From: a virus
Lineage: Duplodnaviria; Heunggongvirae; Uroviricota; Caudoviricetes
Strand: one strand, 5' to 3'
DNA: 31,069 nucleotides
Virus record (IMG/VR): IMGVR_UViG_2778261543_000009
Coordinates: 1-31,069 of that record
Below are positions 7,973-7,995 of this stretch, piece by piece. Position 1 is the stretch's first letter. The number at the start of each line of letters is the position of its first letter. The position numbers were made by a program, and so were the translations under genes. The notes below the pieces were generated by a model, which worked only from the letters and a program-made list of their open reading frames with translations, did no database searches and had not been told where the DNA came from.

Positions 7973-7995
7973 AATCTCCTTAAAAACAGGAGATT
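7973..7995 (-). promoter_or_regulatory. Hairpin that pairs the Shine-Dalgarno sequence of the LprI-like gene with an anti-SD
   Basis: Inverted repeat AATCTCCT / AGGAGATT (8-bp arms, 7-nt loop). In the mRNA the 3' arm contains the SD AGGAG, 6 nt upstream of the ATG at 7968. Confidence 0.35.

Follow-up and report, generated by a model that had tools for sequence, protein, structure and literature searches.

The 31,069-nucleotide prophage sequence of IMG/VR record IMGVR_UViG_2778261543_000009, referred to below in its entirety as the window, carries on its minus strand a short AT-rich insert, the moron, which encodes a secreted protein and whose ribosome-binding site (RBS) is complementary to the sequence just upstream of it. 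What does a leader able to fold away its own Shine-Dalgarno (SD) sequence mean for a gene that sits among late structural genes? We confirm that the hairpin hiding the moron RBS is real, and we tentatively favour, at rather less than even confidence, the reading that translation depends on the origin of the transcript, the RNA from the moron's own promoter being open and the late read-through RNA being folded shut, as in the fold-back logic of IS10. The elements on which this reading is built are the following:

7998..8025, minus strand: predicted sigma70-type promoter of the moron by consensus match, with -35 TTGAAC (8025-8020), a 16-nt spacer and -10 TAAAAT (8003-7998)
7988..7996, minus strand: 5' arm of the hairpin, UAAUCUCCU, a mimic of the anti-SD with its core CUCCU at 7992-7988, from sequence, folding and allele comparison
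7981..7987, minus strand: U-rich loop GUUUUUA, 7 nt in the window and 8 nt in other alleles
7972..7980, minus strand: 3' arm of the hairpin, AGGAGAUUA, which includes the SD AAGGAG (7981-7976) and is the same in five alleles of the moron leader
7945..7973, minus strand: second, weaker hairpin predicted by RNA folding to cover the AUG, with 11 pairs, three of them G-U

Read along the minus strand, the leader runs TTGAAC (8025-8020), 16 nt, TAAAAT (8003-7998), T, TAATCTCCT (7996-7988), GTTTTTA (7987-7981), AGGAGATTA (7980-7972), CGG and the ATG at 7968. A preliminary description of this DNA had placed a perfect 8-bp hairpin here, formed by AATCTCCT (7995-7988), GTTTTTA (7987-7981) and AGGAGATT (7980-7973) and followed by ACGG and the ATG (7968) on the minus strand; coordinates and sequence are right and the stem is indeed perfect, but it is 9 bp long, T7996 pairing with A7972 as well. 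The pairing of the SD AGGAG with an upstream CUCCU that was proposed at the same time is borne out by the sequence and by folding. The SD assignment is itself sound, because the open reading frame (ORF) has its first start at this ATG (7968), which opens a Sec signal peptide and has AAGGAG 7 nt upstream.

Folding of a 71-nt RNA segment recovered the hairpin in both the minimum-free-energy and the centroid structures (total -16.2 kcal/mol), with a z-score of -3.07 and one of 200 shuffles folding equally well. The predicted free energy of the isolated hairpin is -14.1, -12.9, -11.3, -10.1, -8.2 and -5.8 kcal/mol at 25, 30, 37, 42, 50 and 60 °C, and the predicted probability of an open SD under the full stem is about 3e-8 at 37 °C. 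The hairpin covering the AUG (7945-7973) is expected to be weaker in the other alleles, where codon 2 is changed, as read from the allele sequences rather than from folds.

A stem of this length over the SD beats chance for the moron gene and for the window, although not decisively for a scan of many windows. Among 41 annotated genes, taken from the near-identical locus L006, the longest perfect stem over the SD window is 9 bp for the moron and at most 5 bp for each other gene. When the 43 nt upstream were shuffled with their composition preserved, the per-gene probability was 0.003 for a stem of at least 8 bp, 0.034 for at least 6 bp and 0.10 for at least 5 bp. Perfect hairpins of at least 8 bp are not unusual in themselves: the window as a whole contains 8 distinct ones (10 register hits), and its dinucleotide shuffles contain 3.5 +/- 2.3.

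The position of the promoter-like site determines how much of the hairpin an RNA could carry. TTGAAC-16-TAAAAT is the sole sigma70-like site with at least 9 of 12 consensus matches on the minus strand of 7960-8300, and thus of the 333-bp intergenic region; its -10 box lies inside a 21-nt block invariant in all alleles, and the 5' arm starts 2 nt past that box. RNA polymerase of E. coli starts 6-9 bp past the -10 element, most commonly at 7, with modelled shares of 3, 70, 23 and 4% for 6, 7, 8 and 9 bp (PMC5730371). From this rule and a -10 box at 8003-7998, the predicted start is C7992, U7991, C7990 or C7989, inside the 5' arm. If the predicted promoter is used, its transcript would retain CUCCU at the most, UCCU or CCU being likeliest, contrary to the earlier view that the mRNA contains the whole arm, and a hairpin of 8-9 bp would be possible only on RNA begun further upstream.

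Such RNA is to be expected from the genetic setting. The prophage represented by the window is an E. coli one of the Rac type, with its insertion site near ompN/uspF and with lysogens such as E. coli C5, TUM9812 and ETEC1706; its structural genes, from terminase through tail fibres, all lie on the minus strand. The moron, co-directional with this late operon, is flanked by the baseplate gene cluster and by baseplate J, and adjoins the divergent antA/AntB antirepressor gene (8302-8871, plus strand). Two further features complete the cassette:

7222..7968, minus strand: moron gene, an ORF for a 248-amino acid secreted protein starting at ATG 7968, with a GC content of about 0.31 against about 0.5 in the flanks
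7191..7213, minus strand: intrinsic terminator of the moron, AAAACCGC-UUCG-GCGGUUUUUUU, 8 nt past the stop codon and ending 11 nt before the baseplate J start (7179)

Because baseplate J and the tail-fibre genes lie downstream on the same strand and only the terminator and 11 nt stand between, late transcripts must cross both the leader and the moron; the same spacing leaves no room for a separate baseplate J promoter. The preceding baseplate gene, too, has a terminator-like hairpin behind it, GCCCCG…CGGGGCUUUUU, at about 9851-9818 (minus strand). With an intrinsic terminator in mid-operon at 7191-7213 and this further hairpin, late transcription must be terminator-resistant.

On these grounds we propose, tentatively, the following course of events. 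The anti-SD-like CUCCU of the AT-rich leader would pair in cis with the strong SD AAGGAG. The mRNA from the moron's own promoter, with its predicted 5' end at 7992-7989, would lack most of the arm and could form at most 3-5 bp (-6.5 kcal/mol or weaker, and about -3.6 kcal/mol at the likeliest start), which would leave the SD largely free. Late transcripts traversing the moron, presumably antiterminated as in lambdoid phages, would carry the whole arm, and the 23-nt, 9-bp hairpin (-11.3 kcal/mol) could form once transcribed and hide the SD. The net result would be a moron translated from its own promoter, as in the lysogen, and strongly reduced in translation on late read-through RNA.

Several observations are consistent with this origin-dependent reading. 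The leader has a single promoter-like site on the minus strand, and its SD is the sole one among the 41 genes under a perfect stem of more than 5 bp. Truncation of the hairpin to 7992 or 7991 brings its predicted stability (-6.5 and -3.6 kcal/mol) into the range of synthetic constructs that are well expressed or leaky. The anatomy of the operon points to transcription entering from outside, and the complement of the RBS would lie upstream of the gene's own start if the predicted promoter and the 6-9 bp rule hold. Positions 7995-7993 are variable and would lie upstream of the predicted start, while CUCCUG, the U-run and the SD downstream are invariant; a start inside the arm would explain this, since no pairing constraint of the own-promoter RNA would then act upstream of 7992. 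The loop is 7 or 8 nt long, a variation that an RNA loop can tolerate.

The closest precedent is IS10/Tn10, in which, reportedly from the work of Davis, Simons and Kleckner, a complement of the RBS lies upstream of the element's own start, so that only transcripts entering from outside fold the SD away. Fold-back inhibition has also been described for other insertion sequences. Close in anatomy, too, are pyrC and pyrD, whose translation is controlled by SD hairpins that depend on the 5' end of the RNA (PMC6524683). The moron resembles IS10 in that its 5' arm is placed past the -10 box and ahead of the predicted start, the phage late operon being the source of outside transcription. It differs in being part of a prophage and not of a transposable element, and in that its arm abuts the promoter and its start is a predicted one, whereas the IS10 complement lies tens of nucleotides upstream. 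The 1985 report of Davis, Simons and Kleckner on IS10 fold-back inhibition is cited in PMC13181058.

The term moron, already used in the preliminary description, is apt for this gene. Morons are said, following Hendrix and colleagues, to be autonomous promoter-gene-terminator units in the late operons of lambdoid prophages. The present one is an insert of deviant base composition (GC 0.31 against about 0.5, with 0.30-0.34 across 7150-8049) between late structural genes, with a promoter-like site of its own, here a predicted one, a strong intrinsic terminator, and a slot that is occupied by other cassettes in relatives. Descriptions of morons cover transcriptional autonomy, whereas the origin-dependent reading would add a translational gate. 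To our knowledge, and within a search that was not exhaustive, no translational gate on read-through transcripts has been established as a general feature of morons.

Five distinct, close alleles of the moron leader and one swapped cassette came out of scans that covered E. coli genomes, viral contigs and metagenomes. The leader occurs in 18 of 5,426 complete E. coli genomes, in 14 of them with the moron gene and in 4 with an unrelated gene behind the same leader, and it was absent from every record of the phage collection searched. One scan of genome contigs used a 17-mer, which was too short and returned chance matches only. At the protein level, a homologue search returned only this E. coli protein cluster itself, plus two marginal matches, and no wider family. 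The alleles, with 5' arms written as DNA (T standing for U in the RNA) and with the predicted free energy of the full stem at 37 °C, are:

Window allele: arm AATCTCCT, 7-nt loop, -11.3 kcal/mol
STEC005 allele: arm GTTCTCCT, 8-nt loop, -9.7 kcal/mol
ETEC4090 allele: arm GATCTCCT, 8-nt loop, -13.3 kcal/mol
L009 allele: arm GTCCTCCT, 8-nt loop, -7.4 kcal/mol
L194 allele: arm AATCTCCT, 8-nt loop, -13.2 kcal/mol

Judged from these sequences, what is conserved is the CUCCU:AGGAG helix of 5 bp together with a U-rich loop, and not the perfect 8-bp stem, a perfect 8 bp being allele-specific. Only the 5-bp core is unchanged in the five alleles, and the outer stem has mismatches or wobbles in the four others. 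Variation in the leader is greatest at the outer positions 7995-7993, which are flanked on one side by the invariant 21-nt block with the -10 box and on the other by the invariant CUCCUG, U-run and SD; outside the 21-nt block the alleles are 83-90% identical. In the swapped cassette, the STEC383 type, homology ends in the loop: CCUCCUG is kept, and the weak SD of the new gene, GGUGGA, pairs with it feebly (-4.9 kcal/mol).

A number of results weigh against the origin-dependent reading. The 5' end of the moron RNA is a predicted one, and about 4 promoter matches of 9 out of 12 should turn up by chance alone in the 1.8 kb that the scan covered. No compensatory change was counted over the 11 pairs in the five alleles, and the covariation score equals that of shuffled controls. 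The alleles are close relatives, with no homologues beyond a few E. coli prophages, so that their conservation carries little weight. Full-stem stability ranges from -7.4 to -13.3 kcal/mol across them, and strong silencing of read-through RNA is thus not uniformly kept. The opening energy of the initiation region, 11.0 kcal/mol, is the sixth highest among the 41 neighbouring genes, which is high but not extreme. Long transcripts are a further difficulty: in equilibrium folds with the 5' end at 8030 or beyond and the 3' end at 7929 or beyond, the probability of the hairpin is 0.06-0.67, and across all ends folded it varies from 0.06 to 1.0, the rival pairing being that of 8030-7998 with the early coding region. 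Since these equilibrium folds depend on the ends chosen and the thermodynamic case is not clean, silencing of read-through RNA would rely on co-transcriptional folding. Finally, the function of the protein gives no independent reason to avoid late translation. The RefSeq label of the protein is 'lysozyme inhibitor LprI family protein', but the domain matches are below the curated cut-offs (Pfam 18.2 bits against 22, NCBIfam 24.5 against 150), and a lysozyme inhibitor function was consequently dropped as a biological rationale; what the N-terminus does show is a textbook Sec signal peptide, MIKFKLFVVFAFLLQIGTANA|V.

It is quite possible, though we rather doubt it, that the complementarity is incidental and unselected, a strong SD happening to follow a pyrimidine-rich initial transcribed region in AT-rich foreign DNA, in which case the hairpin may still form. 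The allele comparison fits this explanation in that seven of the 11 pairs never vary, one switches one-sidedly between A-U and G-U, and three are broken in some alleles, departing only by unpaired cells, with no compensation anywhere; the most variable positions of the leader are, moreover, those of the outer arm. In composition-matched shuffles the per-gene probability is about 0.10 for the invariant core and 0.003 for the 8-bp stem, and perfect hairpins of at least 8 bp number 8 in the window where about 3.5 are expected. The STEC383-type cassette also retains CUCCUG without a matching SD arm. Five alleles are nevertheless too shallow a sample for the missing covariation support to weigh strongly against a conserved structure. 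The 9-bp stem stands against a maximum of 5 bp for 40 neighbouring genes, and CUCCU:AGGAG, with its three G-C pairs, is kept in every allele of the moron leader. Selected or not, an SD hairpin of -11 kcal/mol is expected to depress the translation of any RNA in which it is present (PMC2577334).

An improbable alternative is that the hairpin is a constitutive element present on all transcripts, setting a fixed low translation of the secreted protein, protecting the 5' end from 5'-end-dependent decay, or both. The stem is predicted to stay closed at all growth temperatures, the U-rich loop could be a standby or S1 binding site beside a strong SD, and a start at 7997-7994 would put the hairpin 0-3 nt from the 5' end. 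This arrangement is the one that stabilises mRNAs such as ompA. A start at 7997-7994, however, would be only 1-4 bp past the -10 box and thus outside the usual 6-9 bp (PMC5730371), and the outer stem that a 5'-terminal structure would need is not conserved.

The preliminary description had read the layout as that of an RNA thermometer or a translational repressor element and had concluded that translation is conditional. Sequestration of the SD stands, and conditional translation is plausible by the different route set out above; a thermometer, that is a hairpin melting toward 37-42 °C so that translation is switched on in the warm-blooded host, is poorly supported because the stem looks too stable, and we regard it as unlikely. 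By prediction, the SD is sequestered by intramolecular pairing, as in RNA thermometers considered as a functional class, and the SD is held by an upstream anti-SD in one simple hairpin; the hosts are gut E. coli. For calibration, the published synthetic 5' untranslated regions (UTRs) of Neupert et al. (2008), which have an AAGGAG SD and a single-hairpin design and were tested in E. coli (PMC2577334), were folded on the same ViennaRNA scale at 37 °C, with the outcomes reported for them:

U6: -6.7 kcal/mol, good thermometer (PMC2577334)
U9: -8.1 kcal/mol, good thermometer (PMC2577334)
U10: -9.3 kcal/mol, weaker induction (PMC2577334)
U11: -10.4 kcal/mol, very little GFP at 37 °C (PMC2577334)
U12: -11.6 kcal/mol, very little GFP at 37 °C (PMC2577334)
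Moron hairpin, full stem: -11.3 kcal/mol, in the U11/U12 range
Moron hairpin, 5' end at 7993: -7.9 kcal/mol, in the U6-U9 range
Moron hairpin, 5' end at 7992: -6.5 kcal/mol, in the U6-U9 range
Moron hairpin, 5' end at 7991: -3.6 kcal/mol, like the unstructured control

U1-U12 of Neupert, Karcher and Bock (2008) and the moron leader have a common plan, a single small stem-loop just before the start codon in which AAGGAG is held by an anti-SD (…CUCCU…), and simple hairpins of this design do work as thermometers, including U6 with its perfect stem (PMC2577334). The full moron stem, however, is as stable as U11 and U12, constructs too stable to switch, its predicted free energy being still -10.1 kcal/mol at 42 °C and -5.8 kcal/mol at 60 °C. 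Since this stability matches that of synthetic AAGGAG hairpins that are nearly silent at 37 °C, the full stem is an unlikely basis for a thermometer. In terms of predicted stability, the idea would survive only for an mRNA starting exactly at 7993-7992, with a stem of 5-6 bp, where -7.9 to -6.5 kcal/mol falls in the working U9/U6 range and where the truncated stem is nearly the same in all alleles, but the most probable start, 7991, leaves 4 bp (-3.6 kcal/mol), too weak for control. A spread of 6 kcal/mol in full-stem stability between alleles, without compensation, also fits badly with a tuned melting device.

Comparison with natural thermometers leads to the same assessment. The moron stem is without the mismatches, the bulges and the pairing by G-U or A-U only that occur in them, and it is not upstream of a heat-shock gene or of a gene for a known virulence regulator. 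A natural fourU thermometer has a mismatch-dependent melting temperature (Tm) of 41.1 °C, and a mutant in which the mismatch is closed, with a Tm of 53.5 °C, was called temperature-stable (PMC2887971). In fourU (RF01795), four U residues pair with AGGA through U-A and U-G, whereas the moron SD pairs with CUCCU through three G-C pairs, and its perfect 9-bp stem is not predicted to be labile and to melt near 37-42 °C. In ROSE and ROSE-like elements, the SD of a multi-hairpin leader, usually upstream of small heat-shock genes, is paired with a U(U/C)GCU motif, and the helix has a bulged G. This motif is absent from the moron leader, the hairpin has no bulged G, and the gene downstream codes for a secreted protein. 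Both an Rfam scan at gathering thresholds and one at E <= 10 over 7900-8320 found no family at the hairpin, whether a thermometer (ROSE, fourU or others) or any other. An SD-occluding leader hairpin is a well-known kind of control, and the moron element lies outside any curated RNA family.

A start switch sensitive to nucleotide pools is very unlikely, even though the anatomy of a 5'-terminal SD hairpin is alike. In pyrC and pyrD of E. coli and Salmonella, which are regulated in exactly this manner, the SD is sequestered by a 5'-terminal hairpin or left free according to the presence of one or two additional nucleotides at the 5' end (PMC6524683), and in the moron each start from 7992 to 7990 would likewise cost one CUCCU:AGGAG base pair, so that starts at C7992, U7991 or C7990 would give hairpins of 5, 4 or 3 bp, tuned to CTP/UTP, with a change of about 3 kcal/mol per position (-6.5, -3.6 and weaker). 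All starts at 6-9 bp are pyrimidines (C, U, C, C), however, the first purine, a G, lying 11 bp from the -10 box, so that there is no C-versus-G competition of the pyrC type, and the gene is unrelated to pyrimidine synthesis or to nucleotide metabolism in general.

It is just as improbable that the palindrome AATCTCCT-N7-AGGAGATT is a protein-binding site, either a DNA operator at the moron promoter or, as an RNA hairpin, the translational operator of a phage or host repressor: counted from the predicted promoter, this perfect inverted repeat of 8 bp covers about +1 to +20, but it is broken one-sidedly in other alleles, its spacer is either 7 or 8 bp long, a difference seldom tolerated by dimeric DNA binders, its half-site centres are 15 bp or about 1.5 helical turns apart, and no candidate regulator was identified. 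The half-site occurs only once in the 31-kb window, and a repeated operator was rejected on this count. Two other roles were also discarded, that of a terminator, the stem having no U-run after it on the minus strand and being followed on the plus strand by AAAUUUUA, where no gene ends, and that of AGGAGATT as an SD on the plus strand (7988-7995), where no start codon lies within 5-13 nt.

A doubtful extension of the origin-dependent reading is that the invariant promoter and CUCCU leader form a reusable insulating module at the exchange hot spot occupied by the moron, silencing any plugged-in cassette on late read-through RNA. The module would carry a mimic of the anti-SD of 16S rRNA just across its own start, so that the cargo would be translated from the lysogenic promoter but silenced on late RNA. 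The suggestion draws on two cassette types, with two unrelated genes, and on the predicted start site.

The slot between baseplate J and the antirepressor (7180-8030 of the window; also in loci L001, L004, L005 and L196) is a hot spot of cassette exchange with at least four cassette types: the moron on the minus strand, the two-gene convergent STEC383 type, two plus-strand genes in Rac-SA53, and one plus-strand gene in M8 and pPE4. The STEC383 type reuses the promoter and leader of the moron as far as the hairpin loop. The ETEC4090 allele of the moron (locus L003, 666-1736, minus strand) codes for 356 amino acids and not 248, and its leader and N-terminus are the same while the C-terminal part is different, so that the cargo gene itself is modular. 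One of the loci in the slot comparison, the 'Actinobacillus phage vB_Apl-pPE4' (L196, PP818812.1), is 96% identical to the E. coli prophage over the baseplate and antirepressor region; this is unexpected for a phage of Pasteurellaceae and may reflect a mis-assigned host or an E. coli-derived contaminant.

Elsewhere in the late operon, two paralogous ORFs for small membrane proteins, 9202-9381 and 9468-9674 (both on the minus strand), share the motif GE(K/R)(F/L)PNWKFLLIW. The segment 9313-9817 is an insertion of about 450 bp relative to the prophage of strain C5, which is otherwise 97% identical, and its GC content drops to about 0.34. Its appearance is that of a mini-moron duplicated within the late operon.

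On the antirepressor side of the slot, a strong match to the Rfam family sRNA-Xcc1 was found at 8181-8265 (plus strand), scoring 72.4 bits against a gathering score of 53. The match is followed 36 nt downstream by the antA/AntB start (8302, same strand) and preceded by a sigma70-like promoter with 10 of 12 matches (TTTACA-16-TATGAT) and by what may be a short terminator-like hairpin, CCAAC-9 nt-GTTGG with T6 behind it, the segments noted being 8034-8061 and 8105-8130. A tRNA-like element suspected upstream, GGTTCGAAA, gave no tRNA and is part of the sRNA-Xcc1 match. With 7150-8320 as the query, 161 of the 5,426 complete E. coli genomes were matched, and most of the partial matches listed span only about 8032-8262, with varied cassettes beside. 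A study of APSE phages described sRNA-Xcc1 upstream of a gene with an ORF6N domain. Instead of a free sRNA, the motif may thus represent a leader that acts in cis on antirepressor-like genes.

At present, the moron leader is one small and plausible cis element in a rare prophage cassette. If translation does depend on the origin of the transcript, translational control alone, needing no extra factor, would confine a gene of the late operon to expression in the lysogen. This would bear on how the expression of prophage cargo, such as virulence, defence and exclusion factors, is read from sequence, and it would call for caution with RNA-seq of induced prophages, in which abundant moron RNA need not mean protein. 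The insulating module, if true, would be a general way for prophages to bar lysogeny-specific cargo carried in the late operon from the lytic programme.

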